64,000 nt of DNA from Eledone cirrhosa (Eukaryota): the NCBI GenBank assembly GCA_964016885.1, contig OZ024743.1, positions 5,952,001 to 6,016,000 of the forward strand, read 5' to 3'. The first letter of the stretch is position 1, and each line of letters begins with the position of its first letter. Position numbers and translations under genes: made by a program. Positions 1 to 55,093 of the stretch are shown piece by piece. The notes under the pieces were generated by a model, which worked only from the letters and a program-made list of their open reading frames with translations, was not told where the DNA came from and did not search any database.

Positions 1-3000
1 TATCCCTCACCATATAAACTGTATCCCCCACCATATAAACTATATCCCCCACCATATAAACTGTATCCCCCACCATACAAACTATATCCCCCCACCATAC
101 TAACTGTATCCCCCACCATATAAACTGTATCCCCCACCATACTAACTGTATCCCCCCACCATACTAACTGTATCCCCCCACCATACTAACTGTATCCCCC
201 ACCATACTAACTGTATCCCCCACCATATAAACTGTATCCCCCACCATACAAACTATATCCCCCCACCATACTAACTGTATCCCCCACCATATAAACTGTA
301 TCCCCCACCATACTAACTGTATCCCCCACCATATAAACTGTATCCCCCACCATACAAACTATATCCCCCCACCATACTAACTGTATCCCCCACCATATAA
401 ACTGTATCCCCCACCATACTAACTGTATCCCCCCACCATACTAACTGTATCCCCCCACCATACTAACTGTATCCCCCCACCATACTAACTGTATCCCCCA
501 CCATACTAACTGTATCCCCCACCATATAAACTATATCCCCCACCATATAAACTGTATCCCCCACCATACAAACTATATCCCCCCACCATACTAACTGTAT
601 CCCCCACCATATAAACTGTATCCCCCACCATACAAACTATATCCCCCCACCATACTAAATGTATCCCCCACCATACTAACTGTATCCCCCACCATATAAA
701 CTGTATCCCCACCATATAAACTATATCCCCCCACCATACTAACTGTATCCCCCACCATACTAACTGTATCCCCCCACCATACTAACTGTATCCCCCACCA
801 TACTAACTGTATCCCCCACCATACTAACTGTATCCCCCACCATATAAACTGTATCCCCACCATATAAACTGTATCCCCCTCCATACTAACTGTATCCCCC
901 ACCATACTAACTGTATCCCCCACCATACTAACTGTATCCCCCACCATATAAACTGTATCCCCCACCATACTAACTGTATCCCCCACCATACTAACTGTAT
1001 CCCCCACCATACTAACTGTATCCCCCCACCATACTAACTGTATCCCCCACCATACTAACTGTATCCCCCACCATACTAACTGTATCCCCCACCATACTAA
1101 CTGTATCCCCCACCATACTAACTGTATCCCCCCACCATACAAACTATATCCACCCACCATACTAACTGTATCCCCCACTATACTAACTGTATCCCCCACC
1201 ATACAAACTGTATCCCCCACCATATAAACTGTATCCCCACCATATAAACTATATCCCCCCACCATACTAACTGTATCCCCCACCATACTAACTGTATCCC
1301 CAACCATACTAACTGTATCCCCCACCATATAAACTGTATCCCCACCATACTAACTGTATCCCCCACCATACTAACTGTATCCCCACCATATAAACTGTAT
1401 CCCCCACCATATAAACTGTATCCCCCACCATACTAACTGTATCCCCCACCATACTAACTGTATCCCCCACCATACTAACTGTATCCCCCACCAGACTAAC
1501 TGTATCCCCCACCATACTAACTGTATCCCCCACCATACTAACTGTATCCCTCACCATACTAACTGTATCCCCACCATATAAACTATATCCCCCACCATAT
1601 AAACTGTATCCCCCACCATATAAACTGTATCCCCCACCATACTAACTGTATCCCCCACCATACTAACTGTATCCCCCACCATATAAACTGTATCCCCCAC
1701 CATACTAACTGTATCCCCCACCATACTAACTGTATCCCCCACCATATAAACTGTATCCCCCACCATACTAACTGTATACCCCACCATATAAACTGTATCC
1801 CCCACCATACTAACTGTATCCCCCACCATACTAACTGTATCCCCCACCATATAAACTGTATCCCCCACCATATAAACTGTATCCCCCACCATACTAACTG
1901 TATCCCCCACCATACTAACTGTATCCCCCACCATATAAACTGTATCCCCCACCATACTAACTGTATCCCCCACCATACTAACTGTATCCCCCACCATATA
2001 AACTGTATCCCCCACCATACTAACTGTATACCCCACCATATAAACTGTATCCCCCACCATACTAACTGTATCCCCCACCATACTAACTGTATCCCCCACC
2101 ATATAAACTGTATCCCCCACCATATAAACTGTATCCCCCACCATACTAACTGTATCCCCCACCATACTAACTGTATCCCCCACCATATAAACTGTATCCC
2201 CCACCATACTAACTGTATCCCTCACCATACTAACTGTATCCCCCACCATATAAACTGTATCCCCCACCATACTAACTGTATCCACCACCATAAAAATTGT
2301 ATCCCCCACCATACTAACTGTATCTCCCACCATACTAACTGTATCCCCCACCATATAAACTGTATCCCCCACCATACTAACTGTATCCCCCACCATATGA
2401 ACTGTATCCCCAACCATACTAACTGTATCCCCCACCATATAAACTGTATCCCCCACCATACTAACTGTATCCCCCACCATACTAACTGTATCCCCCACCA
2501 TATAAACTGTATCCCCCACCATACTAACTGTATCCCCCACCATATAAACTGTATCCCCCACCATACAAACTATATCCCCCACCATATAAACTGTATCCCC
2601 ACCATATAAACTGTATCCCCCACCATACTAACTGTATCCCCCACCATATAAACTGTATCCCCCACCATATAAACTGTATCCCCCACCATATAAACTGTAT
2701 CCCCCACCATACTAACTGTATCCCCCACCATACTAACTGTATCCCCCACCATATAAACTGTATCCCCCACCATATAAACTGTATCCCCCACCATATAAAC
2801 TGTATCCCCCACCATACTAACTGTATCCCCCACCATACTAACTGTATCCCCCACCATACTAACTGTATCCCCCACCATATAAACTGTATCCCCCACCATA
2901 TAAACTGTATCCCCCACCATACTAACTGTATCCCCCACCATACTAACTGTATCCCCCACTATATAAACTGTATCCCCCACCATATAAACTGTATCCCCCA

Positions 3001-6000
3001 CCATACTAACTGTATCCCCCACCATACTAACTGTATCCCCCACCATATAAACTGTATCCCCCACCATATAAACGGTATCCCCCACCATACTAACTGTATC
3101 CCCCACCATACTAACTGTATCCCCCACCATATAAACTGTATCCCCCACCATATAAACTGTATCCCCCACCATATAAACTGTATCCCCCACCATACTAACT
3201 GTATCCCCCACCATACTAACTGTATCCCCCACCATATAAACTGTATCCCCCACCATATAAACTGTATCCCCACCATACTAACTGTATCCCCCACCATACT
3301 AACTGTATCCCCCACCATATAAACTGTATCCCCCACCATACTAACTGTATCCCCCACCATACTAACTGTATCCCCCACCATACTAACTGTATCCCCCACC
3401 ATACTAACTGTATCCCCCACCATATAAACTGTATCCCCCACCATACAAACTATATCCCCCCACCATACTAACTGTATCCCCCACCATATAAACTGTATCC
3501 CCCACCATACTAACTGTATCCCCCCACCATACTAACTGTATCCCCCCACCATACTAACTGTATCCCCCCACCATACTAACTGTATCCCCCACCATACTAA
3601 CTGTATCCCCCACCATATAAACTATATCCCCCACCATATAAACTGTATCCCCCACCATACAAACTATATCCCCCCACCATACTAACTGTATCCCCCACCA
3701 TATAAACTGTATCCCCCACCATACTAACTGTATCCCCCCACCATACTAACTGTATCCCCCACCATATAAACTGTATCCCCCACCATACAAACTATATCCC
3801 CCCACCATACTAAATGTATCCCCCACCATACTAACTGTATCCCCCACCATATAAACTGTATCCCCACCATATAAACTATATCCCCCCACCATACTAACTG
3901 TATCCCCCACCATACTAACTGTATCCCCCCACCATACTAACTGTATCCCCCACCATACTAACTGTATCCCCCACCATACTAACTGTATCCCCCACCATAT
4001 AAACTGTATCCCCACCATATAAACTGTATCCCCCTCCATACTAACTGTATCCCCCACCATACTAACTGTATCCCCCACCATACTAACTGTATCCCCCACC
4101 ATACTAACTGTATCCCCCCACCATACTAACTGTATCCCCCACCATACTAACTGTATCCCCCACCATACTAACTGTATCCCCCACCATACTAACTGTATCC
4201 CCCACCATACTAACTGTATCCCCCCACCATACAAACTATATCCCCCCACCATACTAACTGTATCCACCACCATACTAACTGTATCCCCCACCATACAAAC
4301 TGTATCCCCCACCATATAAACTGTATCCCCACCATATAAACTATATCCCCCCACCATACTAACTGTATCCCCCACCATACTAACTGTATCCCCCACCATA
4401 CTAACTGTATCCCCCACCATATAAACTGTATCCCCACCATACTAACTGTATCCCCCACCATACTAACTGTATCCCCACCATATAAACTGTATCCCCCACC
4501 ATATAAACTGTATCCCCCACCATACTAACTGTATCCCCCACCATACTAACTGTATCCCCCACCATACTAACTGTATCCCCCACCAGACTAACTGTATCCC
4601 CCACCATACTAACTGTATCCCTCACCATACTAACTGTATCCCCACCATATAAACTATATCCCCCACCATATAAACTGTATCCCCCACCATATAAACTGTA
4701 TCCCCCACCATACTAACTGTATCCCCCACCATACTAACTGTATCCCCCACCATATAAACTGTATCCCCCACCATACTAACTGTATCCCCCACCATATAAA
4801 CTGTATCCCCCACCATACTAACTGTATCCCCCACCATATAAACTGTATCTCCCACCATACTAACTGTATCCCCCACCATACTAACTGTATCCCCCACCAT
4901 ATAAACTGTATCCCCCACCATACTAACTGTATCCCCCACCATACTAACTGTATCCGCCACCATACTAACTGTATCCCCCACCATACTAACTGTATCCCCC
5001 ACCATATAAACTGTATCCCCCACCATACTAACTGTATCCCCCACCATACTAACTGTATCCCCCACCATATAAACTGTATCCCCCACCATACTAACTGTAT
5101 ACCCCACCATATAAACTGTATCCCCCACCATACTAACTGTATCCCCCACCATACTAACTGTATCCCCCACCATATAAACTGTATCCCCCACCATATAAAC
5201 TGTATCCCCCACCATACTAACTGTATCCCCCACCATACTAACTGTATCCCCCACCATATAAACTGTATCCCCCACCATACTAACTGTATCCCCCACCATA
5301 CTAACTGTATCCCTCACCATACTAACTGTATCCCCCACCATATAAACTGTATCCCCCACCATACTAACTGTATCCCCCACCATATAAACTGTATCCCCCA
5401 CCATACTAACTGTATCCCCCACCATATAAACTGTATCCCCCACCATACTAACTGTATCTCCCACCATACTAACTGTATCCCCCACCATATAAACTGTATC
5501 CCCCACCATACTAACTGTATCCCCCACCATATGAACTGTATCCCCCACCATACTAACTGTATCCCCCACCATATAAACTGTATCCCCCACCATACTAACT
5601 GTATCCCCCACCATACTAACTGTATCCCCCACCATATAAACTGTATCCCCCACCATACTAACTGTATCCCCCACCATATAAACTGTATCCCCCACCATAC
5701 AAACTATATCCCCCACCATATAAACTGTATCCCCACCATATAAACTGTATCCCCCACCATACTAACTGTATCCCCCACCATATAAACTGTATCCCCCACC
5801 ATATAAACTGTATCCCCCACCATACTAACTGTATCCCCCACCATACTAACTGTATCCCCCACCATATAAACTGTATCCCCCACCATATAAACTGTATCCC
5901 CCACCATATAAACTGTATCCCCCACCATACTAACTGTATCCCCCACCATACTAACTGTATCCCCCACCATACTAACTGTATCCCCCACCATATAAACTGT

Positions 6001-9000
6001 ATCCCCCACCATATAAACTGTATCCCCCACCATACTAACTGTATCCCCCACCATACTAACTGTATCCCCCACCATATAAACTGTATCCCCCACCATACTA
6101 ACTGTATCCCCCACCATACTAACTGTATCCCCCACCATATAAACTGTATCCCCCACCATACTAACTGTATCCCCCACCATACTAACTGTATCCCCCACCA
6201 TACTAACTGTATCCCTCACCATACTAACTGTATCCCCCACCATATAAACTGTATCCCCCACCATACTAACTGTATCCCCCACCATACTAACTGTATCCCC
6301 CACCATACTAACTGTATCCCCCACCATATAAACTGTATCCCCCACCATATAAACTGTATCCCCACCATACTAACTGTATCCCCCACCATACTAACTGTAT
6401 CCCCCACCATATAAACTGTATCCCCCACCATATAAACTGTATCCCCCACCATACTAACTGTATCCCCCACCATACTAACTGTATCCCCCACCATACTAAC
6501 TGTATCCCCCACCATATAAATTGTATCCCCCACCATATAAACTATATCCCTCACCATACTAACTGTATCCCCCACCATACTAACTGTATCCCCCACCATA
6601 CTAACTGTATCCCTCACCATACTAACTGTATCCCCCACCATATAAACTGTATCCCCCACCATACTAACTGTATCCCCCACCATATAAACTGTATCCCTCA
6701 CCATACTAACTGTATCCCCCACCATATAAACTGTATCCCCCACCATATAAACTGTATCCCCCACCATACTAACTGTATCCCCCACCATACTAACTGTATC
6801 CCCCACTATATAAACTGTATCCCCCACCATATAAACTGTATCCCCCACCATACTAACTGTATCCCCCACCATACTAACTGTATCCCCCACCATATAAACT
6901 GTATCCCCCACCATATAAACGGTATCCCCCACCATACTAACTGTATCCCCCACCATACTAACTGTATCCCCCACCATATAAACTGTATCCCCCACCATAT
7001 AAACTGTATCCCCCACCATATAAACTGTATCCCCCACCATACTAACTGTATCCCCCACCATACTAACTGTATCCCCCACCATATAAACTGTATCCCCCAC
7101 CATATAAACTGTATCCCCACCATACTAACTGTATCCCCCACCATACTAACTGTTTCCCCCACCATATAAACTGTATCCCCCACCATATAAACTGTATCCC
7201 CCACCATACTAACTGTATCCCCCACCATACTAACTGTATCCCCCACCATACTAACTGTATCCCCCACCATATAAATTGTATCCCCCACCATATAAACTAT
7301 ATCCCTCACCATACTAACTGTATCCCCCACCATACTAACTGTATCCCCCACCATACTAACTGTATCCCTCACCATACTAACTGTATCCCCCACCATATAA
7401 ACTGTATCCCCCACCATATAAACTGTATCCCCCACCATATAAACTGTATCCCCCACCATACTAACTGTATCCCCCACCATACTAACTGTATCCCCCACCA
7501 TACTAACTGTATCCCCCACCATACTAACTGTATCCCCCACCATATAAACTGTATCCCCCACCATATAAACTGTATCCCCCACCATACTAACTGTATCCCC
7601 CACCATATAAACTGTATCCCCCACCATACTAACTGTATCCCCCACCATACTAACTGTATCCCCCACCATATAAACTGTATCCCCCACCATATAAACGGTA
7701 TCCCCCACCATACTAACTGTATCCCCCACCATACTAACTGTATCCCCCACCATATAAACTGTATCCCCCACCATATAAACTGTATCCCTCACCATACTAA
7801 CTGTATCCCCCACCATACTAACTGTATCCCTCACCATACTAACTGTATCCCCCACCATATAAACTGTATCCCCCACCATACTAACTGTATCCCCCACCAT
7901 ATAAACTGTATCCCCCACCATACTAACTGTATCCCTCACCATACTAACTGTATCCCCCACCATATAAACTGTATCCCCCACCATACTAACTGTATCCCCC
8001 ACCATATAAACTGTATCCCCCACCATACTAACTGTATCCCCCACCATATAAACTGTATCCCTCACCATACTAACTGTATCCCCCACCATACTAACTGTAT
8101 CCCCCACCATACTAACTGTATCCCTCACCATACTAACTGTATCCCCCACCATACTAACTGTATCCCCCACCATACTAACTGTATCCCCCACCATATAAAC
8201 TGTATCCCCCACCATACTAACTGTATCCCTCACCATACTAACTGTATCCCCCACCATATAAACTGTATCCCCCACCATACAAACTATATCCCCCACCATA
8301 TAAACTGTATCCCCCACCATATAAACTGTATCCCCCACCATACTAACTGTATCCCCCACCATATAAACTGTATCCCCCACCATACTAACTGTATCCCCCA
8401 CCATATAAACTGTATCCCTCACCATACTAACTGTATCCCCCACCATACTAACTGTATCCCCCACCATACTAACTGTATCCCCCACCATATAAACTGTATC
8501 CCCCACCATATAAACTGTATCCCCCACCATACTAACTGTATCCCCCACCATATAAACTGTATCCCTCACCATACTAACTGTATCCCCCACCATATAAACT
8601 GTATCCCCCACCATACAAACTATATCCCCCACCATATAAACTGTATCCCCCACCATATAAACTGTATCCCCCACCATATAAACTGTATCCCCCACCATAT
8701 AAACTGTATCCCCCACCATACTAACTGTATCCCCCACCATACTAACTGTATCCCCCACCATATAAACTGTATCCCCCACCATACTAAATGTATCCCCCAC
8801 CATACTAACTGTATCCCCCACCATATAAACTGTATCCTCCACCATATAAACTGTATCCCCCACCATACTAACTGTATCCCCCACCATACTAACTGTATCC
8901 CCCACCATACTAACTGTATCCCCCACCATACTAACTGTATCCCCCACCATACTAACTGTATCCCCACCATATAAACTATATCCCCCCACCATACTAACTG

Positions 9001-12000
9001 TATCCCCCACCATACTAACTGTATCCCCCACCATACTAACTGTATCCCCCACCATACAAACTATATCCCCCACCATACTAACTGTATCCCCCACCATATA
9101 AACTGTATCCCCCACCATACTAACTGTATCCCCCACCATATAAACTGTATCCCCACCATATAATCTGTATCCCCCACCATACTAACTGTATCCCCCCACC
9201 ATACTAACTGTATCCCCCACCATACAAACTATATCCCCCCACCATACTAACTGTATCCCCCACCATACTAACTGTATCCCCCACCATATAAACTGTATCC
9301 CCCATCATACAAACTATATCCCCCCCACCATACTAACTGTATCCCCCACCATACTAACTGTATCCCCCACCATATAAACTATATCCCCCCACCATACTAA
9401 CTGTATCCCCCACCATACTAACTGTATCCCCCACCATACTAACTGTATCCCCCACCATACTAACTGTATCCCCCACCATATAAACTATATCCCCCCACCA
9501 TACTAACTGTATCCCCCACCATACTAACTGTATCCCCCACCATACTAACTGTATCCCCCACCATACAAACTATATCCCCCCACCATACTAACTGTATCCC
9601 CCACCATATAAACTGTATCCCCCACCATACTAACTGTATCCCCCACCATATAAACTGTATCCCCACCATATAAACTGTATCCCCCACCATACTAACTGTA
9701 TCCCCCACCATACTAACTGTATCCCCCACCAGACTAACTGTATCCCCCACCATACTAACTGTATCCCCCACCATACTAACTGTATCCCTCACCATACTAA
9801 CTGTATCCCCACCATATAAACTATATCCCCCACCATATAAACTGTATCCCCCACCATATAAACTGTATCCCCCACCATATTAACTGTATCCCCCACCATA
9901 CTAACTGTATCCCCCACCATATAAACTGTATCCCCCACCATACTAACTGTATCCCCCACCATATAAACTGTATCCCCCACCATACTAACTGTATCCCCCA
10001 CCATATAAACTGTATCTCCCACCATACTAACTGTATCCCCCACCATACTAACTGTATCCCCCACCATATAAACTGTATCCCCCACCATACTAACTGTATC
10101 CCCCACCATACTAACTGTATCCCCCACCATACTAACTGTATCCCCCACCATACTAACTGTATCCCCCACCATATAAACTGTATCCCCCACCATACTAACT
10201 GTATCCCCCACCATACTAACTGTATCCCCCACCATATAAACTGTATCCCCCACCATACTAACTGTATACCCCACCATATAAACTGTATCCCCCACCATAC
10301 TAACTGTATCCCCCACCATACTAACTGTATCCCCCACCATATAAACTGTATCCCCCACCATACTAACTGTATCCCCCACCATACTAACTGTATCCCCCAC
10401 CATATAAACTGTATCCCCCACCATACTAACTGTATCCCCCACCATACTAACTGTATCCCCCACCATACTAACTGTATCCCTCACCATACTAACTGTATCC
10501 CCCACCATATAAACTGTATCCCCCACCATACTAACTGTATCCCCCACCATACTAACTGTATCCCCCACCATACTAACTGTATCCCCCACCATATAAACTG
10601 TATCCCCCACCATGTAAACTGTATCCCCACCATACTAACTGTATCCCCCACCATACTAACTGTATCCCCCACCATATAAACTGTATCCCCCACCATATAA
10701 ACTGTATCCCCCACCATACTAACTGTATCCCCCACCATACTAACTGTATCCCCCACCATACTAACTGTATCCCCCACCATATAAATTGTATCCCCCACCA
10801 TATAAACTATATCCCTCACCATACTAACTGTATCCCCCACCATACTAACTGTATCCCCCACCATACTAACTGTATCCCTCACCATACTAACTGTATCCCC
10901 CACCATATAAACTGTATCCCCCACCATACTAACTGTATCCCCCACCATATAAACTGTATCCCTCACCATACTAACTGTATCCCCCACCATATAAACTGTA
11001 TCCCCCACCATATAAACTGTATCCCCCACCATACTAACTGTATCCCCCACCATACTAACTGTATCCCCCACTATATAAACTGTATCCCCCACCATATAAA
11101 CTGTATCCCCCACCATACTAACTGTATCCCCCACCATACTAACTGTATCCCCCACCATATAAACTGTATCCCCCAACATATAAACGGTATCCCCCACCAT
11201 ACTAACTGTATCCCCCACCATACTAACTGTATTCCCCACCATATAAACTGTATCCCCCACCATATAAACTGTATCCCCCACCATATAAACTGTATCCCCC
11301 ACCATACTAACTGTATCCCCCACCATACTAACTGTATCCCCCACCATATAAACTGTATCCCCCACCATATAAACTGTATCCCCACCATACTAACTGTATC
11401 CCCCACCATACTAACTGTATCCCCCACCATATAAACTGTATCCCCCACCATATAAACTGTATCCCCCACCATACTAACTATATCCCCCACCATACTAACT
11501 GTATCCCCCACCATACTAACTGTATCCCCCACCATATAAACTGTATCCCCCACCATACAAACTATATCCCCCCACCATACTAACTGTATCCCCCACCATA
11601 TAAACTGTATCCCCCACCATACTAACTGTATCCCCCCACCATACTAACTGTATCCCCCCACCATACTAACTGTATCCCCCCACCATACTAACTGTATCCC
11701 CCACCATACTAACTGTATCCCCCACCATATAAACTATATCCCCCACCATATAAACTGTATCCCCCACCATACAAACTATATCCCCCCACCATACTAACTG
11801 TATCCCCCACCATATAAACTGTATCCCCCACCATACTAACTGTATCCCCCCACCATACTAACTGTATCCCCCACCATATAAACTGTATCCCCCACCATAC
11901 AAACTATATCCCCCCACCATACTAAATGTATCCCCCACCATACTAACTGTATCCCCCACCATATAAACTGTATCCCCACCATATAAACTATATCCCCCCA

Positions 12001-36000: not shown

Positions 36001-39000
36001 CACCATATAAACTGTATCCCCCACCATATAAACTGTATCCCCCACCATACTAACTGTATCCCCCACCATATAAACTGTATCCCCCACCATACTAACTGTA
36101 TCCCCCACCATACTAACTGTATCCCCCACCATATAAACTGTATCCCCCACCATACTAACTGTATCCCCCACCATACTAACTGTATCCCCCACCATATAAA
36201 CTGTATCCCCCACCATACTAACTGTATCCCCCACCATACTAACTGTATCCCCCACCATATAAACTGTATCCCCCACCATACTAACTGTATCCCCCACCAT
36301 ATAAACTATATCCCCCACCATATAAACTGTATCCCCCACCATATAAACTGTATCCCCCACCATATAAACTGTATCCCCCACCATACTAACTGTATCCCCC
36401 ACCATACTAACTGTATCCCCCACCATATAAACTGTATCCCTCACCATACAAACTGTATCCCCCACCATACAAACTGTATCCCCCACCATACTAACTGTAT
36501 CCCCCACCATATAAACTGTATCCCCCACCATACAAACTATATCCCCCACCATACTAACTGTATCCCCCACCATATAAACTGTATCCCCCACCATATAAAC
36601 TGTATCCCCCACCATATAAACTGTATCCCCCACCATACTAACTGTATCCCCCACCATACTAACTGTATCCCCCACCATATAAACTGTATCCCCCACCATA
36701 TAAACTGTATCCCCCACCATACTAACTGTATCCCCCACCATACTAACTGTATCCCCCACCATACTAACTGTATCCCCCACCATATAAACTGTATCCCCCA
36801 CCATACTAACTGTATCCCCCACCATACAAACTATATCCCCCACCATACTAACTGTATCCCCCACCATACTAACTGTATCCCCCACCATACTAACTGTATC
36901 CCCCACCATATAAACTGTATCCCCCACCATATAAACTGTATCCCCCACCATACTAACTGTATCCCCCACCATACTAACTGTATCCCCCACCATATAAACT
37001 GTATCCCCCACCATACAAACTGTATCCCCCACCATACTAACTGTATCCCCCACCATATAAACTGTATCCCCCACCATATACACTGTATCCCCCACCATAT
37101 AAACTGTATCCCCCACCATACTAACTGTATCCCCCACCATATAAACTGTATCCCCCACCATACAAACCGTATCCCCCACCATATAAACTGTATCCCCACC
37201 ATATAAACTGTATCCCCCACCATACTATCTGTATCCCCCACCATACTAACTGTATCCCCCACCATATAAACTGTATCCCCCACCATACAAACTGTATCCC
37301 CCACCATATAAACTGTATCCCCACCATATAAACTGTATCCCCCACCATATAAACTGTATCCCCACCATATAAACTGTATCCCCCACCATATAAACTGTAT
37401 CCCCCACCATACTAACTGTATCCCCCACCATACAAGCTGTATCCCCCACCATATAAACTGTATCCCCCACCATATAAACTGTATCCCCCACCATATAAAC
37501 TGTATCCCCCACCATATAAACTGTATCCCCCACCATATAAACTGTATCCCCCACCATATAAACTGTATCCCCCACCATACTACCTGTATCCCCCACCATA
37601 TAAACTGTATCCCCCACCATATAAACTGTATCCCCCACCATACTAACTGTATCCCCCACCATATAAACTGTATCCCCCACCATACAAACTGTATCCCCCA
37701 CCATACTAACTGTATCCCCCACCATATAAACTGTATCCCCCACCATATAAACTGTATCCCCCACCATACAAACTGTATCCCCCACCATACTAACTGTATC
37801 CCCCACCATATAAACTATATCCCCCACCATATAAACTGTATCCCCCACCATATAAACTGTATCCCCCACCATACAAACTGTATCCCCCACCATACTACCT
37901 GTATCCCCCACCATATAAACTGTATCCCCCACCATATAAACTGTATCCCCCACCATACTAACTGTATCCCCCACCATATAAACTGTATCCCCCACCATAC
38001 AAACTGTATCCCCCAACATACTAACTGTATACCCCACCATATAAACTGTATCCCCCACCATATAAACTGTATCCCCCACCATACAAACTGTATCCCCCAC
38101 CATACTAACTGTATCCCCCACCATATAAACTATATCCCCCACCATATAAACTGTATCCCCCACCATATAAACTGTATCCCCCACCATACAAACTGTATCC
38201 CCCACCATACTACTTGTATCCCCCACCATATAAACTGTATCCCCCACCATATAAACTGTATCCCCCACCATACTAACTGTATCCCCCACCATATAAACTG
38301 TATCCCCCACCATACTAACTGTATCCCCCACCATATAAACTGTATCCCCCACCATATAAACTGTATCCCCCACCATACAAACTGTATCCCCCACCATACT
38401 AACTGTATCCCCCACCATATAAACTGTATCCCCCACCATACTAACTGTATCCCCCACCATACTAACTGTATGCCCCACTATATAAACTGTATCCCCCACC
38501 ATATAAACTGTATCCCCCACCATACTAACTGTATCCCCCACCATACTAACTGTATCCCCCACCATACTAACTGTATCCCCCACCATATAAATTGTATCCC
38601 CCACCATACTAACTGTATCCCCCACCATATAAACTGTATCCCCCACCATATAAACTGTATCCCCCACCATACTAACTGTATCCCCCACCATACTAACTGT
38701 ATCCCCCACCATATAAACTGTATCCCCCACCATATAAACGGTATCCCCCACCATACTAACTGTATCCCCCACCATACTAACTGTATCCCCCACCATACTA
38801 ACTGTATCCCCCACCATATAAACTGTATCCCCCACCATATAAACTGTATCCCTCACCATACTAACTGTATCCCCCACCATACTAACTGTATCCCCCACCA
38901 TACTAACTGTATCCCTCACCATACTAACTGTATCCCCCACCATATAAACTGTATCCCCCACCATATAAACGGTATCCCCCACCATACTAACTGTATCCCC

Positions 39001-42000
39001 CACCATACTAACTGTATCCCCCACCATACTAACTGTATCCCCCACCATATAAACTGTATCCCCCACCATATAAACTGTATCCCTCACCATACTAACTGTA
39101 TCCCCCACCATACTAACTGTATCCCCCACCATACTAACTGTATCCCTCACCATACTAACTGTATCCCCCACCATATAAACTGTATCCCTCACCATACTAA
39201 CTGTATCCCCCACCATACTAACTGTATCCCCCACCATACTAACTGTATCCCCCACCATACTAACTGTATCCCCCACCATATAAACTGTATCCCCCACCAT
39301 ATAAACTGTATCCCCCACCATATAAACTGTATCCCCCACCATATAAACTGTATCCCCCACCATACTAACTGTATCCCTCACCATACTAACTGTATCCCCC
39401 ACCATATAAACTGTATCCCCCACCATACTAACTGTATCCCCCACCATATAAACTGTATCCCCCACCATATAAACTGTATCCCTCACCATACTAACTGTAT
39501 CCCCCACCATGCTAACTGTATCCCCCACCATACTAACTGTATCCCTCACCATACTAACTGTATCCCCCACCATACTAACTGTATCCCCCACCATACTAAC
39601 TGTATCCCCCACCATATAAACTGTATCCCCCACCATACTAACTGTATCCCTCACCATACTAACTGTATCCCCCACCATATAAACTGTATCCCCCACCACA
39701 CAAACTATATCCCCCACCATATAAACTGTATCCCCCACCATATAAACTGTATCCCCCACCATACTAACTGTATCCCCCACCATACTAACTGTATCCCCCA
39801 CCATATAAACTGTATCCCCCACCATATAAACTGTATCCCCCACCATACTAACTGTATCCCCCACCATATAAACTGTATCCCTCACCATACTAACTGTATC
39901 CCCCACCATATAAACTGTATCCCCCACCATATAAACTGTATCCCCCACCATACTAACTGTATCCCCCACCATATAAACTGTATCCCTCACCATACTAACT
40001 GTATCCCCCACCATATAAACTGTATCCCCTACCATATAAACTGTATCCCCCACCATACTAACTGTATCCCCCACCATATAAACTGTATCCCTCACCATAC
40101 TAACTGTATCCCCCACCATATAAACTGTATCCCCCACCATACAAACTATATCCCCCACCATACTAACTGTATCCCCCACCATACTAACTGTATCCCCCAC
40201 CATATAAACTGTATCCCTCACCATACTAACTGTATCCCCCACCATATAAACTGTATCCCCCACCATATAAACTGTATCCCTCACCATACTAACTGTATCC
40301 CCCACCATATAAACTGTATCCCCCACCATACAAACTATATCCCCCACCATACTAACTGTATCCCCCACCATACTAACAGTATCCCCCACCATATAAACTG
40401 TATCCCTCACCATACTAACTGTATCCCCCACCATATAAACTGTATCCCTCACCATACTAACTGTATCCCCCACCATATAAACTGTATCCCCCACCATATA
40501 AACTGTATCCCCCACCATACTAACTGTATCCCCCACCATACTAACTGTATCCCCCACCATACTAACTGTATCCCCCACCATATAAACTGTATGCCCCACC
40601 ATACAAACTATATCCCCCACCATACTAACTGTATCCCCCACCATACTAACTGTATCCCCCACCATATAAACTGTATCCCTCACCATACTAACTGTATCCC
40701 CCACCATATAAACTGTATCCCTCACCATACTAACTGTATCCCCCACCATATAAACTGTATCCCCCACCATATAAACTGTATCCCCCACCATACTAACTGT
40801 ATCCCCCACCATACTAACTGTATCCCCCACCATACTAGCTGTATCCCCCACCATATAAACTGTATCCCCCACCATATAAACTGTATCCCCCACCATACTA
40901 ACTGTATCCCCCACCATACTAACTGTATCCCCCACCATATAAACTGTATCCCCCACCATACAAACTGTATCCCCCACCATACTAACTGTATCCCCCACCA
41001 TATAAACTGTATCCCCCACCATACAAACTATATCCCCCACCATACTAACTGTTTCCCCCACCATATAAACTGTATCCCCCACCATATAAACTGTATCCCC
41101 CACCATATAAACTGTATCCCCCACCATACTAACTGTATCCCCCACCATACTAACTGTATCCCCCACCATATAAACTGTATCCCCCACCATATAAACTGTA
41201 TCCCCCACCATACTAACTGTATCCCCCACCATACTAACTGTATCCCCCACCATACTAACTGTATCCCCCACCATACAAACTGTATCCCCCACCATACTAA
41301 CTGTATCCCCCACCATACAAACTATATCCCCCACCATACTAACTGTATCCCCCACCATACTAACTGTATCCCCCACCATACTAACTGTATCCCCCACCAT
41401 ATAAACTGTATCCCCCACCATATAAACTGTATCCCCCACCATACTAACTGTATCCCCCACCATACTAACTGTATCCCCCACCATATAAACTGTATCCCCC
41501 ACCATACAAACTGTATCCCCCACCATACTAACTGTATCCCCCACCATATAAACTGTATCCCCCACCATATACACTGTATCCCCCACCATATAAACTGTAT
41601 CCCCCACCATACTAACTGTATCCCCCACCATATAAACTGTATCCCCCACCATACAAACCGTATCCCCCACCATATAAACTGTATCCCCACCATATAAACT
41701 GTATCCCCCACCATACTATCTGTATCCCCCACCATACTAACTGTATCCCCCACCATATAAACTGTATCCCCCACCATACAAACTGTATCCCCCACCATAT
41801 AAACTGTATCCCCACCATATAAACTGTATCCCCACCATATAAACTGTATCCCCACCATATAAACTGTATCCCCCACCATATAAACTGTATCCCCCACCAT
41901 ACTAACTGTATCCCCCACCATACTAACTGTATCCCCCACCATACTAACTGTATCCCCCACCATACAAGCTGTATCCCCCACCATATAAACTGTATCCCCC

Positions 42001-45000
42001 ACCATATAAACTGTATCCCCCACCATATAAACTGTATCCCCCACCATATAAACTGTATCCCCCACCATATAAACTGTATCCCCCACCATATAAACTGTAT
42101 CCCCCACCATATAAACTGTATCCCCCACCATATAAACTGTATCCCCCACCATACTAACTGTATCCCCCACCATATAAACTGTATCCCCCACCATACAAAC
42201 TGTATCCCCCACCATACTAACTGTATCCCCCACCATATAAACTGTATCCCCCACCATATAAACTGTATCCCCCACCATACAAACTGTATCCCCCACCATA
42301 CTAACTGTATCCCCCACCATATAAACTATATCCCCCACCATATAAACTGTATCCCCCACCATACAAACTGTATCCCCCACCATACTACCTGTATCCCCCA
42401 CCATATAAACTGTATCCCCCACCATATAAACTGTATCCCCCACCATACTAACTGTATCCCCCACCATATAAACTGTATCCCCCACCATACAAACTGTATC
42501 CCCCAACATACTAACTGTATACCCCACCATATAAACTGTATCCCCCACCATACAAACTGTATCCCCCACCATACTAACTGTATCCCCCACCATATAAACT
42601 ATATCCCCCACCATATAAACTGTATCCCCCACCATATAAACTGTATCCCCCACCATACAAACTGTATCCCCCACCATACTACTTGTATCCCCCACCATAT
42701 AAACTGTATCCCCCACCATACTAACTGTATCCCCCACCATATAAACTGTATCCCCCACCATACTAACTGTATCCCCCATCATATAAACTGTATCCCCCAC
42801 CATATAAACTGTATCCCCCACCATACAAACTGTATCCCCCACCATACTAACTGTATCCCCCACCATATAAACTGTATCCCCCACCATATAAACTGTATCC
42901 CCCACCATATAAACTGTATCCCCCACCATACTAACTGTATCCCCCACCATACTAACTGTATCCCCCACCATATAAACTGTATCCCCCACCATACTAACTG
43001 TATCCCCCACCATATAAACTGTATCCCCCACCATATAAACTGTATCCCCCACCATATAAACTGTATCCCCCACCATATAAACTGTATCCCCCACCATACT
43101 AACTGTATCCCCCACCATACTAACTGTATCCCCCACCATATAAACTGTATCCCCCACCATATAAACTGTATCCCCCACCATATAAACTGTATCCCCCACC
43201 ATACTAACTGTATCCCCCACCATACTAACTGTATCCCCCACCATATAAACTGTATCCCCCACCATACTAACTGTATCCCCCCACCATATAAACTGTATCC
43301 CCCACCATACTAACTGTATCCCCCACCATATAAACTGTATCCCCCACCATACTAACTGTATCCCCCACCATATAAACTGTATCCCCCACCATATAAACTG
43401 TATCCCCCACCATATAAACTGTATCCCCCACCATACTAACTGTATCCCCCACCATACTAACTGTATCCCCCACCATATAAACTGTATCCCCCACCATATA
43501 AACTGTATCCCCCACCATACAAACTGTATCCCCCACCATATAAACTGTATCCCCACCATATAAACTGTATCCCCCACCATATAAACTGTATCCCCCACCA
43601 TACTAACTGTATCCCCCACCATATAAACTGTATCCCCCACCATATAAACTGTATCCCCCACCATACAAACTGTATCCCCACCATATAAACTGTATCCCCC
43701 ACCATATAAACTGTATCCCCCACCATATAAACTGTATCCCCCACCATACTAACTGTATCCCCCACCATACTAACTGTATCCCCCACCATATAAACTGTAT
43801 CCCCCACCATACAAACTGTATCCCCCACCATACTAACTGTATCCCCCACCATATAAACTGTATCCCCCACCATATACACTGTATCCCCCACCATATAAAC
43901 TGTATCCCCCACCATACTAACTGTATCCCCCACCATATAAACTGTATCCCCCACCATACAAACCGTATCCCCCACCATATAAACTGTATCCCCACCATAT
44001 AAACTGTATCCCCCACCATACTATCTGTATCCCCCACCATACTAACTGTATCCCCCACCATATAAACTGTATCCCCCACCATATAAACTGTATCCCCCAC
44101 CATACAAACTGTATCCCCCACCATATAAACTGTATCACCACCATATAAACTGTATCCCCCACCATATAAACTGTATCCCCACCATATAAGCTGTATCCCC
44201 CACCATATAAACTGTATCCCCCACCATACTAACTGTATCCCCCACCATACTAACTGTATCCCCCACCATACAAGCTATATCCCCCACCATATAAACTGTA
44301 TCCCCCACCATATAAACTGTATCCCCCACCATATAAACTGTATCCCCCACCATATAAACTGTATCCCCCACCATATAAACTGTATCCCCCACCATACAAA
44401 CTGTATCCCCCACCATACTACCTGTATCCCCCACCATATAAACTGTATCCCCCACCATACTAACTGTATCCCCCACCATATAAACTGTATCCCCCACCAT
44501 ACAAACTGTATCCCCCAACATACTAACTGTATCCCCCACCATATAAACTGTATCCCCCACCATATAAACTGTATCCCCCACCATACAAACTGTATCCCCC
44601 ACCATACTAACTGTATCCCCCACCATATAAACTATATCCCCCACCATATAAACTGTATCCCCCACAATATAAACTGTATCCCCCACCATACAAACTGTAT
44701 CCCCCACCATACTACTTGTATCCCCCACCATATAAACTGTATCCCCCACCATATAAACTGTATCCCCCACCATATAAACTGTATCCCCCACCATACTAAC
44801 TGTTTCCCCCACCATATAAACTGTATCCCCCACCATACAAACTGTATCCCCCACCATACTAACTGTATCCCCCACCATATAAACTGTATTCCCCACCATA
44901 CAAACTGTATCCCCCACCATACTAACTGTATCCCCCACCATATAAACTGTATCCCCCACCATATAAACTGTATCCCCCACCATATAAACTGTATCCCCCA

Positions 45001-48000
45001 CCATACTAACTGTATCCCCCACCATACTAACTGTATCCCCCACCATATAAACTGTATCCCCCACCATACTAACTGTATCCCCCACCATATAAACTGTATC
45101 CCCCACCATATAAACTGTATCCCCCACCATATAAACTGTATCCCCCACCATACTAACTGTATCCCCCACCATATAAACTGTATCCCCCACCATATAAACT
45201 GTATCCCCCACCATACTAACTGTATCCCCCACCATACTAACTGTATCCCCCACCATATAAACTGTATCCCCCACCATACTAACTGTATCCCCCACCATAT
45301 AAACTGTATCCCCCACCATACTAACTGTATCCCCCACCATATAAACTGTATCCCCCACCATATAAACTGTATCCCCCACCATATAAACTGTATCCCCCAC
45401 CATACTAACTGTATGCCCCACCATATAAACTGTATCCCCCACCATATAAACTGTATCCCCCACCATATAAACTGTATCCCCCACCATATAAACTGTATCC
45501 CCCACCATATAAACTGTATCCCCCACCATACTAACTGTATCCCCCACCATACTAACTGTATCCCCCACCATATAAACTGTATCCCCCACCATACTAACTG
45601 TATCCCCCACCATACTAACTGTATCCCCCACCATATAAACTGTATCCCCCACCATATAAACTGTATCCCCCACCATACTAACTGTATCCCCCACCATATA
45701 AACTGTATCCCCCACCATACTAACTGTATCCCCCACCATACTAACTGTATCCCCCACCATATAAACTGTATCCCCCACCATATAAACTGTATCCCCCACC
45801 ATACTAACTGTATCCCCCACCATATAAACTGTATCCCCCACCATATAAACTGTATCCCCCACCATACTAACTGTATCCCCCACCATACTAACTGTATCCC
45901 CCACCATATAAACTGTATCCCCCACCATATAAACTGTATCCCCCACCATACTAACTGTATCCCGCACCATACTAACTGTATCCCCCACCATATAAACTAT
46001 ATCCCCCACCATACTAACTGTATCCCCCACCATACTAACTGTATCCCCCACCATATAAACTGTATCCCCCACCATATAAACTGTATCCCCCACCATACTA
46101 ACTGTATCCCCCACCATACTAACTGTATCCCCCACCATATAAACTATATCCCCCACCATATAAACTGTATCCCCCACCATACTAACTGTATCCCCCACCA
46201 TATAAACTGTATCCCCCACCATATAAACTGTATCCCCCACCATACTAACTGTATCCCCCACCATACTAACTGTATCCCCCACCATACTAACTGTATCCCC
46301 CACCATATAAACTGTATCCCCCACCATATAAACTGTATCCCCCACCATACTAACTGTATCCCCCACCATACTAACTGTATCCCCCACCATATAAACTGTA
46401 TCCCCCACCATATAAACTGTATCCCCCACCATACTAACTGTATCCCCCACCATACTAACTGTATCCCCCACCATATAAACTGTATCCCCCACCATACTAA
46501 CTGTATCCCCCACCATACTAACTGTATCCCCCACCATATAAATTGTATCCCCCACCATATAAACTGTATCCCCCACCATATAAACTGTATGCCCCACCAT
46601 ATAAACTGTATCCCCCACCATATAAACTGTATCCCCCACCATATAAACTGTATCCCCCACCATACTAACTGTATCCCCCACCATATAAACTGTATCCCCC
46701 ACCATATAAACTGTATCCCCCACCATATAAACTGTATACCCCACCATACTAACTGTATCCCCCACCATATAAACTGTATCCCCCACCATATAAACTGTAT
46801 CCCCCACCATACTAACTGTATCCCCCACCATATAAACTGTATCCCCCACCATATAAACTGTATCCCCCACCATACAAACTGTATCCCCCACCATATAAAC
46901 TGTATCCCCCACCATATAAACTGTATCCCCCACCATATAAACTGTATCCCCCACCATATAAACTGTATCCCCCACCATATAAACTGTATCCCCCACCATA
47001 TAAACTGTATCCCCCACCATACAAACTGTATCCCCCACCATACTAACTGTATCCCTCACCATACTAACTGTATCCCCCACCATATAAACTGTATCCCTCA
47101 CCATATAAACTGTATCCCCCACCATATAAACTGTATCCCCCACCATATAAACTGTATCCCCCACCATATAAACTGTATCCCCCACCATATAAACTGTATC
47201 CCCCACCATATAAACTGTATCCCCCACCATATAAACTGTATCCCCCACCATACAAACTGTATCCCCCACCATACTAACTGTATCCCCCACCATACTAACT
47301 GTATCCCCCACCATATAAACTGTATCCCCCACCATATAAACTGATCCCCCACCATACTAACTGTATCCCCCACCATATAAACTGTATCCCCCACCATATA
47401 AACTGTATCCCCCACCATATAAACTGTATCCCCCACCATACAAACTGTATCCCCCACCATACTAACTATCCCCCACCATATAAACTGTATCCCTCACCAT
47501 ATAAACTGTATCCCCCACCATACTAACTGTATCCCCCACCATATAAACTGTATCCCTCACCATATAAACTGTATCCCCCACCATATAAACTGTATCCCCC
47601 ACCATATAAACTGTATCCCCCACCATACTAACTGTATCCCTCACCATATAAACTGTATCCCCCACCATACAAACTGTATCCCCCACCATACTAACTGTAT
47701 CCCCCACCATATAAACTGTATCCCCCACCATATAAACTGTAACCGCCACCATATAAACTGTATCCCCCACCATACTAACTGTATCCCCCACCATATAAAC
47801 TGTATCCCCCACCATATAAACTGTATCCCCACCATATAAACTGTATCCCCCACCATATAAACTGTATCCCCCACCATATAAACTGTATCCCCCACCATAT
47901 AAACTGTATCCCCCACCATACTAACTGTATCCCCCACCATATAAACTGTATCCCCCACCATATAAACTGTATCCCCCACCATACTAACTGTATCCCCCAC

Positions 48001-49380
48001 CATATAAACTGTATCCCCCACCATATAAACTGTATCCCCCACCATATAAACTGTATCCCCCACCATATAAACTGTATCCCCCACCATACAAACTGTATCC
48101 CCCACCATACTAACTGTATCCCCCACCATACTAACTGTATCCCCCACCATATAAACTGTTTCCCCACCATACTAACTGTATCCTCCACCATACTAACTGT
48201 ATCCCCCACCATATAAACTGTATCCCCCACCATACTAACTGTATCCCCCACCATACTAACTGTATCCCCCACCATACTAACTGTATCCCCCACCATACTA
48301 ACTGTATCCCCCACCATATAAACTGTATCCCCCACCATACTAACTGTATCCCCCACCATACTAACTGTATCCCCCACCATATAAACTATATCCCCCACCA
48401 TATAAACTGTATCCCCCACCATATAAACTGTATCCCCCACCATACTAACTGTATCCCCCACCATATAAACTGTATCCCCACCATATAAACTATATCCCCC
48501 ACCATACTAACTGTATCCCCCACCATACTAACTGTATCCCCCACCATACTAACTGTATCCCCCACCATATAAACTATATCCCCCACCATATAAACTGTAT
48601 CCCCCACCATATAAACTGTATCCCCCACCATATAAACTGTTTTCCCACCATACTAACTGTATCCCCCACCATATAAACTGTTTCCCCACCATACTAACTG
48701 TATCCCCCACCATATAAACTGTATCCCCCACCATACTAACTGTATCCCCCACCATATAAACTGTATCCCCACCATATAAACTATATCCCCCACCATACTA
48801 ACTGTATCCCCCACCATATAAACTGTATCCCCCACCATATAAACTGTATCCCCCACCATATAAACTATATCCCCCACCATATAAACTGTATCCCCCACCA
48901 TATAAACTATATCCCCCACCATACTAACTGTATCCCCCACCATACTAACTGTATCCCCCACCATATAAACTGTATCCCCCACCATATAAACTATATCCCC
49001 CACCATATAAACTGTATCCCCCACCATATAAACTATATCCCCCACCATATAAACTGTATCCCCCACCATATAAACTGTATCCCCCACCATATAAACTATA
49101 TCCCCCACCATATAAACTGTATCCCCCACCATACTAACTGTATCCCCCACCATACTAACTGTATCCCCCACCATATAAACTGTATCCCCCACCATACAAA
49201 CTGTATCCCCCACCATATAAACTGTATCCCCCACCATACTAACTGTATCCCCCACCATATAACTGTATCCACCACCATACTAACTGTATCCCCCACCATA
49301 CAAACTGTATCCCCCACCATATAAATTGTATCCCCCACCATACAAACTGTATCCCCCACCATATAACTGTATCCACCACT
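1..49380. repeat. 21-bp tandem satellite, consensus CTGTATCCCCCACCATA(CT|TA)AA, >=49 kb, open at the left window edge
   Basis: Continuous head-to-tail units read directly; two major variants (..CATACTAA, ..CATATAAA), minor ..CATACAAA, C-run of 4-6; about 49380/21 = ~2,350 units; decays at 49260-49380. Confidence 0.99.
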
Positions 49381-49511
49381 GTACAAGCTGCACCCAATAC
49401 AGTTGCCCCCCCCCCCCCCCCACACTCATCATTTCCATTTTGTTTCATCAGCAAATATTGATGAAAGATATACGTTATGTTTAATAAACATTTTGAAAGC
49501 CCAGCTATGAA

Positions 49512-49631
49512 TTGGAAGGCTGATGGGCAGTACCGCCTTGTGGATTCCAGCAGAAGCAGTGGGGATAACTCAGTTATTCTCCGCTGCTTCTGCCGGAATC
49601 CACTAGATGGCACTACCTGTCAGCCTTTCAA
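49512..49631. repeat. Imperfect palindrome with ~60-bp arms (MITE-like/foldback), containing a CTCF-like motif
   Basis: Left arm TTGGAAGGCTGATGGGCAGTACCGCCTTGTGGATTCCAGCAGAAGCAGTGGGGATAACT aligns to the reverse complement of 49572-49631 with about 11 mismatches (mostly transitions) and 1 gap; centre at 49571. Confidence 0.9.
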
Positions 49632-49814
49632 AATGTTTATTTATTAAACATACCGTATATCTTTAGACATATGAAATTCACATACATATATGTATACAAC
49701 CAAGGGCCTTGTTTCAACGGGGTACCTGGTGACATTACCCCCCCCCCCCCCCCCACACACACACTTTTTCAGGAGCGGTGGACAAACCATCTTTTGTTTT
49801 TTTGTTTATTTGAT

Positions 49815-49917
49815 ATAATTGTTTCTACTTTTTTTGGCACAAGGCCAGCAAATTACCCAGTGTATTACTGGTACTTTATTTTATCGACCCCGTAAGGATG
49901 AAAGGCAAAGTGAACCT
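49815..49917 (-). mobile_element. SINE family A copy, 5'-truncated, 13-bp target-site duplication
   Basis: Shares ACTGGTACTTTATTTTATCGACCCCGTAAGGATGAAAGGCAAAG with other copies in the window; TATTTGATATAAT at 49807-49819 and 49917-49929. Confidence 0.85.
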
Positions 49918-50099
49918 ATTTGATATAATAAATCCTTTTAAGCTTATTTTTTTTTATATCTGAACTTCATTTGAATATATAAAATTTAATTAGCGTAAAA
50001 TTTTACTTATGTGATAGGGTCCAGGAAAGGCACCATAAACAATACTAACATGCTCCTTTAAGAATCAACAAAATGTTGGTTTATCCCCTTCACATTTTT

Positions 50100-50275
50100 A
50101 AAGCATATGAGGCCCATGTACACAACTATGCCGAAGATAAATTTTAGTCCTATTGACTTTGTCTAATACTTCTTACTCAGAGTTGATGTCTTATGGAACA
50201 CTCTCTGCTAATGCTTTTGAACTAACATGACTGTAAAGAAGTTCAAACAGAACATTAATTGCATCAAACTCATCT
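50100..50275 (+). mobile_element. Possible degraded LINE (CR1/jockey-like) 3' remnant
   Basis: Short translation YFLLRVDVLWNTL resembles the FFxxRVxxxWNxLP C-terminal motif of CR1-group ORF2; frameshifted and short. Confidence 0.3.
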
Positions 50276-50420
50276 GTTTAATAGGGCTTGCAAAGACCAT
50301 GAGTGTTTCTTCATCTCTTCTGAAGCAGATCTACAATGTATGATGTATATGTGGGTGAATATCAACTGTAAAATAACTTTTGAAAAAAAACCAGTTAAAT
50401 TAAATGTTTTCTATTTTCAG

Positions 50421-50626
50421 GGTACTTCTATTCATCAGACCCTTCTCAAATTTGGCGTGTTGCTGAGAACCTAGAGACAGGGATTGTTGGTGTTAATGAA
50501 AGTTTGTTATCTGCATCTGAATGTCCATTTGGTGGAGTTAAGCAATCAGGTTTAGGACGAGAAGGAGGGAAGTTTGGTATTGATGAGTTTTTAGAAATAA
50601 AATATGTGTGTATGGGAGGGCTTTAA
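50421..50626 (+). CDS. ALDH5A1: Terminal coding exon of succinate-semialdehyde dehydrogenase (SSADH, aldehyde dehydrogenase family 5)
   Basis: Acceptor TGTTTTCTATTTTCAG ends at 50420 (phase 1). Manual translation (G)[67 protein letters not shown] with TAA at 50624-50626; has the ALDH PFGGxKxSGxGREG motif and closely matches the animal SSADH C-terminus as recalled. Confidence 0.95.
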
Positions 50627-50924
50627 ATAAATAGATTTAATATATTATAAATAATGTCCAGTATATATTTATAAATGAGAGCTTTAGATTTTTATATAGG
50701 AATTGGGGATTAGATAGTTTGTTAGCTTCACTGGAATTGTTGGAGCAAGTGTTGTGAACCCCATTCTAATATCACCCATTCAGCATATTTTCTTAACTGA
50801 ATTGAATTTGGTAGAACAATCTATATTGTTTAAGAAATGTGCAGTGGCTAGGAAAGATTTTATATGACATATAATTATAGTATATATTTTAAAATGAAAC
50901 TTATAGATGGATTTTGAGTTGTGA

Positions 50925-50930
50925 AATAAA
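50925..50930 (+). terminator. Candidate polyadenylation signal of ALDH5A1
   Basis: AATAAA ~300 nt after the stop, followed by GT/T-rich CTGTTTTGTGTATTCTTTG at ~50950; a second AATAAA overlaps the stop codon (50626-50631). Confidence 0.55.
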
Positions 50931-51422
50931 TATAATATATACTTAATATCTGTTTTGTGTATTCTTTGTATAAGCATGCTAACTAATGACACAAAAAGCT
51001 CCAGTAGATAATTTATATATTTATTTTTCTGTTTCTTCCCTTTATTCCAGCATCCCTCTTCTTCCAGGTTCCCCCTTAACTAAACTATTCCTTTTCTCAC
51101 ATGTCCCCTTCTTCTACAACTGCCCTTCTTTACTGCTTCCTCCTTATCTCAAACTCCTTCTGTCTCTCTCACATGCCTATTTTATTATCCAAGCTTGCCC
51201 AATCCTATTCCATACACTTACACTTACTTCTCATTCTATTATTTTCCTTCCCACATTGCATGCTAGACTGTAATGAAATGTCTTTTTAGGATAACCCATC
51301 TAAGAGGGTAGTAACTCAAAATAAAAACTTGCATAAAGGACACTGTTTAGGAGAGCAATAACTCCTTATTCAAACTGCATAGAAATGACAGGAACTCTAG
51401 AAGCTGTAACAGTAGAGGTAAC

Positions 51423-54041: not shown

Positions 54042-54338
54042 AGCATATAAACAATATGCCCCCACACCCCCCACCGCAAGGTGGTCGTGGAGGTGCCACG
54101 GCAAAAAAGCACCCAGCCCACACTGTAAAGTGGACGTGTAGGCGCCACGAAAAAGCACCCAGCACTCACTGTAAATGAGGTTGGTGTTAGGAAGGGCATC
54201 CAGCTGTAGAAATCAAGCCAGATCAGTTCCTGTATGAGCAAGGCATGGTCAGCCGACCAGACACTGCACACAACAGGACAACCCGTCTAACCCATGCTAG
54301 CGTGGAAGAACGGACGCAAAACGGTGATGATGATGATG
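51450..54338 (+). mobile_element. RTE-clade non-LTR retrotransposon, 5'-truncated
   Basis: Begins mid-endonuclease (VHGGHGVGTRNEEG), complete RT, ~300-nt 3' UTR, (TGA)n tail at 54325-54338; no TSD found, 5' boundary approximate. Confidence 0.93.
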
Positions 54339-54667: not shown

Positions 54668-54780
54668 ATAATTGTTTCTACTTTTTGGCACAAGGCCAGC
54701 AATTACCCAGTACATTACTGGTACTTTATTTTATCGACCCCGTAAGGATGAAAGGCAAAGTTAACCTCGGCGGGATTTGA
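54668..54780 (-). mobile_element. SINE family A copy with 16-bp target-site duplication
   Basis: Near-identical to the 49815 copy; TGAAGAATCTAATAAT at 54657-54672 and 54778-54793. Confidence 0.88.
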
Positions 54781-54951: not shown

Positions 54952-54976
54952 ATAGAGTTACGGTCCTTGCTCTTCT

Positions 54977-55093
54977 GAGTTCAAATCCTGCCGAGGTTAA
55001 CTTTGCCGTTCATCCTTACGGGGTCGATAAAATAAAGTACCAGTAATGTATTGGGTAACTGCTGGCCTTGTGCCAAAAGTAGAAACAATTATT
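54977..55093 (+). mobile_element. SINE family A copy (inverted relative to 54668-54780)
   Basis: Starts with B-box-like GAGTTCAAATCC, family core, ends AGAAACAATTATT. Confidence 0.85.

Follow-up and report, generated by a model that had tools for sequence, protein, structure and literature searches.

Two introns of a single-copy ALDH5A1 gene in the octopod Eledone cirrhosa are filled by giant locus-private tandem arrays

The stretch of DNA analysed here (the window, 64,000 nucleotides, C4:5952001-6016000) opens with a tandem array of a 21-bp unit and, beyond the end of this array, contains an exon resembling the last exon of ALDH5A1, the gene for SSADH, an enzyme that breaks down GABA. The locus raises the question of whether a satellite of this size lies inside an intron of an intact metabolic gene and, if so, whether the gene is transcribed and spliced across it. 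The window was examined together with 200 kb of upstream sequence, 264 kb in total from an assembly of 3.0 Gb, and no N bases were found in these 264 kb around ALDH5A1.

Searching this region by tblastn with an SSADH-like protein from Argonauta (P0002) gave a gene model of 11 exons, colinear and all on the + strand, in which 10 of 10 introns have GT-AG borders. The features of the locus, in order along the contig, are as follows.

C4:5796567-5809332, + strand, ALDH5A1 exons 1-7 (tblastn gene model)
C4:5827279-5892017, + strand, 58-bp array in intron 7 (64,739 bp), followed as far as 5892670 by a tail of 50-bp units
C4:5893584-5893742, + strand, exon 8 (gene model)
C4:5901976-5902145, + strand, exon 9 (gene model)
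C4:5909960-5910018, + strand, exon 10, the penultimate exon, 42 kb left of the window (gene model; a GT donor follows)
Directly after the GT donor of exon 10, + strand, non-array 5' part of intron 10, 1,551 bp
C4:5911570-6001379, + strand, whole 21-bp array in intron 10, 89,810 bp, ~4,270 units, gap-free
Window 1-49379, + strand, the part of the 21-bp array that lies inside the window (its right-hand 55%), with 2350.5 copies at 92% matches
Window 49380-50420, + strand, non-array 3' part of intron 10, 1,041 bp, with a pyrimidine tract and then the AG acceptor at 50419-50420
Window 50421-50626, + strand, exon 11, terminal and coding, phase 1, ending at a TAA stop
Window 50627-50930, + strand, 3' UTR, with a transcript-like contig to 50920 and AATAAA at 50925-50930

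The predicted protein has 505 amino acids and 0 internal stops. It is identical to the Argonauta protein at 413 of 505 positions (81.8%) in a gap-free alignment and is 58.6% identical to chimpanzee ALDH5A1. The terminal exon, which encodes the C-terminus, has Argonauta hians SSADH-like protein as its nearest named relative (85%), matches the Pfam family Aldedh (E 2e-15) and finds human SSADH as its best PDB match (2w8p, E 1.7e-32, 67 of 67 residues aligned); its best 120 matches are mostly SSADH where they are named. In the modelled protein LELGG is found at 275 and GQTCVC at 307, and we take the Glu of ELGG and the Cys of the CxC loop to be catalytic. A genome-wide search did not find a second copy. 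On its sequence the gene is ALDH5A1, encoding mitochondrial SSADH, intact and single-copy, and an active enzyme that oxidises succinic semialdehyde is predicted. The terminal exon and canonical acceptor read from the window alone are thus borne out, and the possibility that this exon is an orphan or a duplicate is excluded by its single copy and its place in a complete 11-exon gene. Compared with human SSADH (2w8p) the protein shows no notable difference, with both motifs kept; the oddity of this gene is the content of its introns.

Intron 10 measures 92,402 bp and the 21-bp array fills 97.2% of it. The largest step between unit anchors in the array is 63 bp. The original prediction had placed at least 49 kb of satellite in the last ALDH5A1 intron, with an intron length above 50 kb and about 98% of the visible part made of satellite; the visible share is 97.9%, and the two lower bounds are well exceeded in the assembly. 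The part of the intron between the array and the acceptor contains no SSADH exon, in line with the original observation that no penultimate exon is recognisable there. Exon 10 maps beyond the other, left-hand end of the array, in the correct order and phase. A high-copy interspersed repeat is found near 49815-49917 in this non-array part. The 21-bp array has open stretches, the longest of 1,671 codons, which are probably a product of the repeat unit rather than a sign of a coding role.

The last intron is not the only one affected, as intron 7 (84,251 bp) holds the 58-bp array, which is unrelated to the 21-bp one and makes up 77.6% of the intron. ALDH5A1 thus has two array-filled introns, 7 and 10. 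The eight remaining introns are of 0.3-8.2 kb, and both arrays together occupy 155 of the 206 kb between the start codon and the point where the transcript contig ends. The TTAGGG telomeric repeat was not found in either array.

Evidence that intron 10 is removed comes from assembled contigs of sequencing runs. A contig of 2,083 nt from run X4 (organism A, the species of this assembly), a run classed as RNA because its contig is spliced, the records listing none of the runs as RNA, matches window 50420-50920 with 0 differences. In the comparison around exon 10 only exon 10 itself is covered (record positions 500-559), and the contig continues on one side with the last bases of exon 9 and on the other with the first bases of exon 11. 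The contig therefore joins position 50421 directly to exon 10, that is, to a donor left of the array, as the original prediction required. The same exon 10-exon 11 junction is present in X15, from another, related species and guessed to be RNA, so that it occurs in 2 of the 4 runs compared. The X16 contig stops 1 base beyond exon 10, and the X1 contig reads through the intron edges, is DNA-like and carries 3 differences in exon 10. Excision of intron 10 at the exon 10-11 junction is confirmed at the level of transcript contigs. The exon 7-8 junction is predicted by the gene model, and the length of the X4 contig fits it: outside the terminal exon the contig measures 1,582 nt, and the coding sequence upstream of that exon amounts to 1,312 nt. 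Given cis-splicing, read-through of the 21-bp array by Pol II is likely.

Both arrays appear to be private to this locus. All 2,782 genome-wide matches to exact words from the 21-bp array and all 158 to words from the 58-bp array lie at ALDH5A1, with 0 on the reverse strand in each case; exact words would overlook diverged copies elsewhere. The 21-bp array contains 133 distinct units, two main types accounting for 1,808 and 1,159 of 4,201 units. Rare unit types are more frequent in two edge blocks (37 of 400) than in the interior (7-20 of 400). Exact internal duplications of at least 300 bp number 223 in the 21-bp array (longest 3,432 bp) and 157 in the 58-bp array (longest 4,839 bp), and degenerate 65-bp and 50-bp relatives lie on the flanks of the latter. 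Duplications accompanied by degenerate flanking units are the pattern expected if arrays grow in place, and the degenerate edge units may hint at a single seed copy in the orthologous intron of relatives.

The probable explanation is that introns 7 and 10 of an intact, single-copy ALDH5A1 are filled by giant locus-private minisatellites that were born in place, are read through and cis-spliced, and are near-neutral. A short local seed in each intron may have been duplicated where it stood, and the array would then have grown by slippage and kb-scale unequal exchange. Pol II would transcribe the arrays, at about four times (~4x) the transcription length, and ordinary cis-splicing would remove them. 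They may have escaped purging since exons would still be defined correctly and intron length would be under weak selection; near-neutrality is likely as the default assumption.

A different reading, which is unlikely, is that the assembler inflated real arrays, for instance by placing the two haplotypes, or blocks that are nearly identical, one after the other, and that the true introns are several-fold shorter. The long exact duplications lie at offsets of 5-18 kb and could be false duplications, and the 3 differences of the X1 contig in exon 10 suggest that the source may be heterozygous here. However, N gaps are absent, and array-unique 64-mers are missing over at most 9,715 bp at a time in the 21-bp array and 5,690 bp in the 58-bp array, distances that the usual accurate long reads of 15-20 kb would span if such reads were used here. 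This spacing makes gross misassembly less likely, and array lengths are given as assembled. The duplications are also nested at many offsets, as in the real VNTR of human CACNA1C (PMC11118589), and the confinement of the array words to a single locus makes the placement of the arrays between the exons independent of the join.

The transcribed strand of the 21-bp array contains 2,240 TACTAAC and only 40 AG, with 0 GTRAG, 0 AGGT and 0 AATAAA/ATTAAA; the rest of the gene has 3 TACTAAC in 50 kb. The sense strand of the 58-bp array has 8,732 AG and 7 GTRAG, again with 0 AGGT and 0 AATAAA/ATTAAA. TACTAAC is the consensus of the branch point and of STAR proteins. It could therefore be proposed that the arrays are retained for a function, either to delay transcription or, for intron 10, to bind SF1/BBP or Quaking-family proteins through its TACTAAC words, as an RNA scaffold or sponge; a size of 155 of 206 kb would suit the proposal that intron size acts as a timer (PMC11207136). 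Such a function is quite unlikely. TACTAAC has a probability of 0.6% in a shuffled 21-bp unit, but it was noticed post hoc, and 1,625 units have TATAAA in its place. Of 12 intronic arrays, just 1 has ACTAAY in its sense-strand units and 2 have it in their antisense-strand units, an AG-free unit is expected in 70% of shuffles, and the units of different introns are unrelated. The abundance of TACTAAC is likely to be chance.

Other signs of selection on the sequence were sought among the 12 intronic arrays. Selection against AG in the 21-mer was not supported, as 7 of 39 substitution types create AG (their contexts being non-independent) and AG-free units are so common among shuffles. A general avoidance of splice-like words was rejected, since on the sense strand GTRAG reaches 22-67/kb in 3 of the 12 arrays and a pyrimidine-AG word 34/kb in 1 of the 12. 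Strand-specific selection on poly(A) signals was not seen, AATAAA/ATTAAA being near zero on both strands in 12 of 12, and no consistent strand bias was found across the arrays (GC skew -0.81 to +0.99). The 21-mer would be easily tolerated because its sense strand is nearly free of acceptors, donors and poly(A) signals. Splice-like words abound in other arrays, however, and exon definition at the true sites is thus likely to suffice.

It is very improbable that the array is not read through, with exon 11 joined by trans-splicing, which is noted for some large-intron genes (PMC11207136), or with intron 10 removed piecewise by recursive splicing; a contig junction is compatible with cis and trans joining alike, but the exons follow each other in order on a single strand and are all bordered by canonical sites, and the lack of AGGT and of AATAAA/ATTAAA on the sense strand of both ALDH5A1 arrays leaves no usual recursive site or terminator.

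Large arrays are not confined to ALDH5A1. Among 80 stretches of 10 kb, evenly placed on nine contigs and so a non-random sample, 11 were at least 97% tandem repeat, with units that mostly differed. All 11 were among 58 stretches from elsewhere, whereas the 22 stretches taken from the initial 20 Mb of C4 gave 0. One array begins at C4:208.30 Mb, and its unit also fills the stretch at 210.0 Mb. Most genes surveyed are compact: gaps of more than ~18 kb between exon matches were found in 0 of 9 multi-exon CCT/HSP60 loci and in 0 of 5 other ALDH loci, the latter as partial spans and excluding a cluster on C13. The myosin survey covered 19 myosin-head loci with at least 2 matches, by a strict search that misses weak exons. 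Gaps above 30 kb were present in 6 of the 19 and all were probed; large arrays were found in 2, while arrays above 6 kb were absent from the other four gaps (C11, C2, C208 and C5, the one on C11 being interrupted by 200 N).

The first of the two positive genes is Myosin-IX on C3, with 11 colinear exon matches to the O. vulgaris protein and, in the predicted introns between them, arrays of 81 kb (40-mer), 41 kb (29-mer), 19 kb, 14 kb and 10 kb. The second, on C6, has a predicted intron of 41 kb containing a 37.7-kb array of a 45-mer, one flanking exon match being weak (E 0.07). A myosin exon from the same genome is 99% identical to the Argonauta and Octopus vulgaris proteins, which, like the Argonauta hians match of the SSADH exon, points to an octopod. 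Exact words of the 40-mer (423 of 423) and of the 45-mer (120 of 120) are likewise confined to a single locus, with 0 on the other strand, so that 4 of 4 intronic arrays examined by this exact-word test are private. Array-filled introns are therefore not peculiar to ALDH5A1 but recur in other genes, and their presence says little about SSADH specifically. Given that most surveyed genes are compact, two arrays in one gene exceed what a uniform rate would readily lead one to expect. ALDH5A1 and the two myosin genes each lie within ~6 Mb of a contig end; compact CCT genes, however, are found at 4.7-4.9 Mb of C19 and C21.

The original prediction had named the Y-linked fertility genes of Drosophila as the best-known case of satellite-filled giant introns. 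These genes, kl-3 and kl-5, exceed 4 Mb and are expressed in spermatocytes by a dedicated program with the factors blanks and heph (PMC6508621, PMC11207136). The parallel holds in that introns of an intact gene are nearly all tandem repeat between small exons, 97.2% of intron 10 and 77.6% of intron 7 being satellite. It does not hold for size, the ALDH5A1 introns being 92.4 and 84.3 kb rather than megabases, and the gene differs further in spanning 0.2 Mb, in encoding a metabolic enzyme and in having private 21- and 58-bp units.

On the best reading the nearest known case found is instead the VNTR in intron 3 of human CACNA1C. This has a 30-bp unit, single-copy in chimpanzee, and a median length of 5.7 kb, and its longest type, of 13-61 kb, is termed an outlier (PMC11118589). 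The ALDH5A1 arrays are similarly intronic and single-locus, with short units, a few common variants and kb-scale duplication; in this one assembly they show three features of an intronic VNTR, namely a head-to-tail unit of 10-100 bp within an intron, a single locus and internal duplication. They differ in reaching 65 and 90 kb within one gene, in taking up 78% and 97% of the introns that hold them, and in recurring in other genes. VNTRs are enriched near chromosome ends (PMC11118589), and the position of the three array genes near contig ends resembles this. Octopus minor is also an octopod with enlarged introns, to which, with transposons, its genome size is ascribed (mean intron 5.4 kb, simple repeats 14.7%); introns made of a single private array are absent from the part of that account available in PMC6279123. 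No paper on array-filled cephalopod introns was found in the literature searched, and supplements to genome papers may already tabulate such arrays.

Satellite-filled giant introns have been studied chiefly in the Y-linked fertility genes of flies, and in humans intronic VNTRs of giant size are treated as outliers. The arrays described here bear on whether such introns are silenced, slowed or dependent on special factors in ordinary genes, and short-read assemblies of cephalopod genomes would break array-filled genes into pieces. Many unrelated single-locus arrays within mollusc genes would be independent replicates of the birth of a satellite before it spreads, and of the limits on intron length. 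A tentative and rather doubtful extension is that intron gigantism affects ordinary genes genome-wide, with private satellites of 10-90 kb per intron, several per gene, perhaps affecting a few percent of genes. Somatic cells would then have to transcribe and splice satellite-filled introns as a matter of routine, and would need a read-through program like that of the Y loops outside the germ line. If this were true, the most stringent test would be offered by the 21-bp array of ALDH5A1, as every nascent transcript would carry 2,240 branch-point words.

ALDH5A1 contains a second giant array, in intron 7, and arrays of similarly short units occupy introns of two myosin genes elsewhere in the assembly (G000; C-numbers are its contigs and L-numbers stretches of it).

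C4:5827279-5892670 (L007-L014), intron 7 of ALDH5A1: 1,117 copies of a 58-bp unit, then a 50-bp tail
C3:880001-1205000 (L156-L171, L174-L205), minus strand: arrays in introns of the Myosin-IX gene
C6:99966272-100003949 (L146-L150): 37.7-kb array of a 45-mer in a myosin intron

The 58-bp array occupies 78% of intron 7, and its exact words occur at a single locus, being no more numerous genome-wide than locally. In Myosin-IX, different arrays were found in at least five introns, namely a 40-mer (81 kb), a 29-mer (41 kb), a 42-mer (19 kb), a 48-mer (14 kb) and a 28-mer (10 kb), along with several further arrays of 3-9 kb. The C6 45-mer resembles, when compared by eye, a dispersed repeat fragment in L084, and because of this likeness the array may derive from a SINE-like element.

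The contig from the DNA-like run X1 differed from the assembly at three positions (L006:7968, 7999 and 8005), all changed to G. All three lay within the 59-bp exon 10 of ALDH5A1, the flanking intron (257 bp) showing no difference, and one is predicted to replace Thr421 with Arg. The spliced contig of run X4 matched the assembly at this exon. The X1 contig is possibly the other allele.

An interspersed repeat, a retrotransposon copy and a helicase fragment were also found in the window.

49815-49917, 54670-54780, 54970-55085, 62880-62980, 63830-63970, both strands: one very high-copy short interspersed repeat, identified by eye
51351-54175: copy of a non-LTR retrotransposon, just beyond the ALDH5A1 3' UTR
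61794-62210: helicase C-terminal fragment of 138 codons (matched weakly in Pfam, with a score under the cut-off)

At the first of the repeat copies, summed contig depth exceeded background by orders of magnitude. The retrotransposon, which we take to be RTE-like, has an open frame of 896 codons encoding a reverse transcriptase and a PHD-like finger, and its 3' end carries a short tandem duplication. The helicase fragment is presumably PIF1/Helitron-like.

Other large arrays were observed in the genome.

C4, from 208.30 Mb, also in L083 (210.0 Mb): 55-mer array
C4, from 269.81 Mb, with L086 at 270.0 Mb: 39-mer array

Reverse-strand matches were few for both (10 and 30, respectively). The 55-mer array possibly extends over at least 1.7 Mb and is a possible candidate centromere. 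The repeat in L098 (C1:280.0 Mb), a 227-bp unit inside a 1,723-bp higher-order repeat, differs in kind from the short-unit arrays. Contigs C1-C4 measure 379-443 Mb each whereas the other contigs seen reach at most 135 Mb, and this disparity suggests that C1-C4 are the products of large chromosome fusions.
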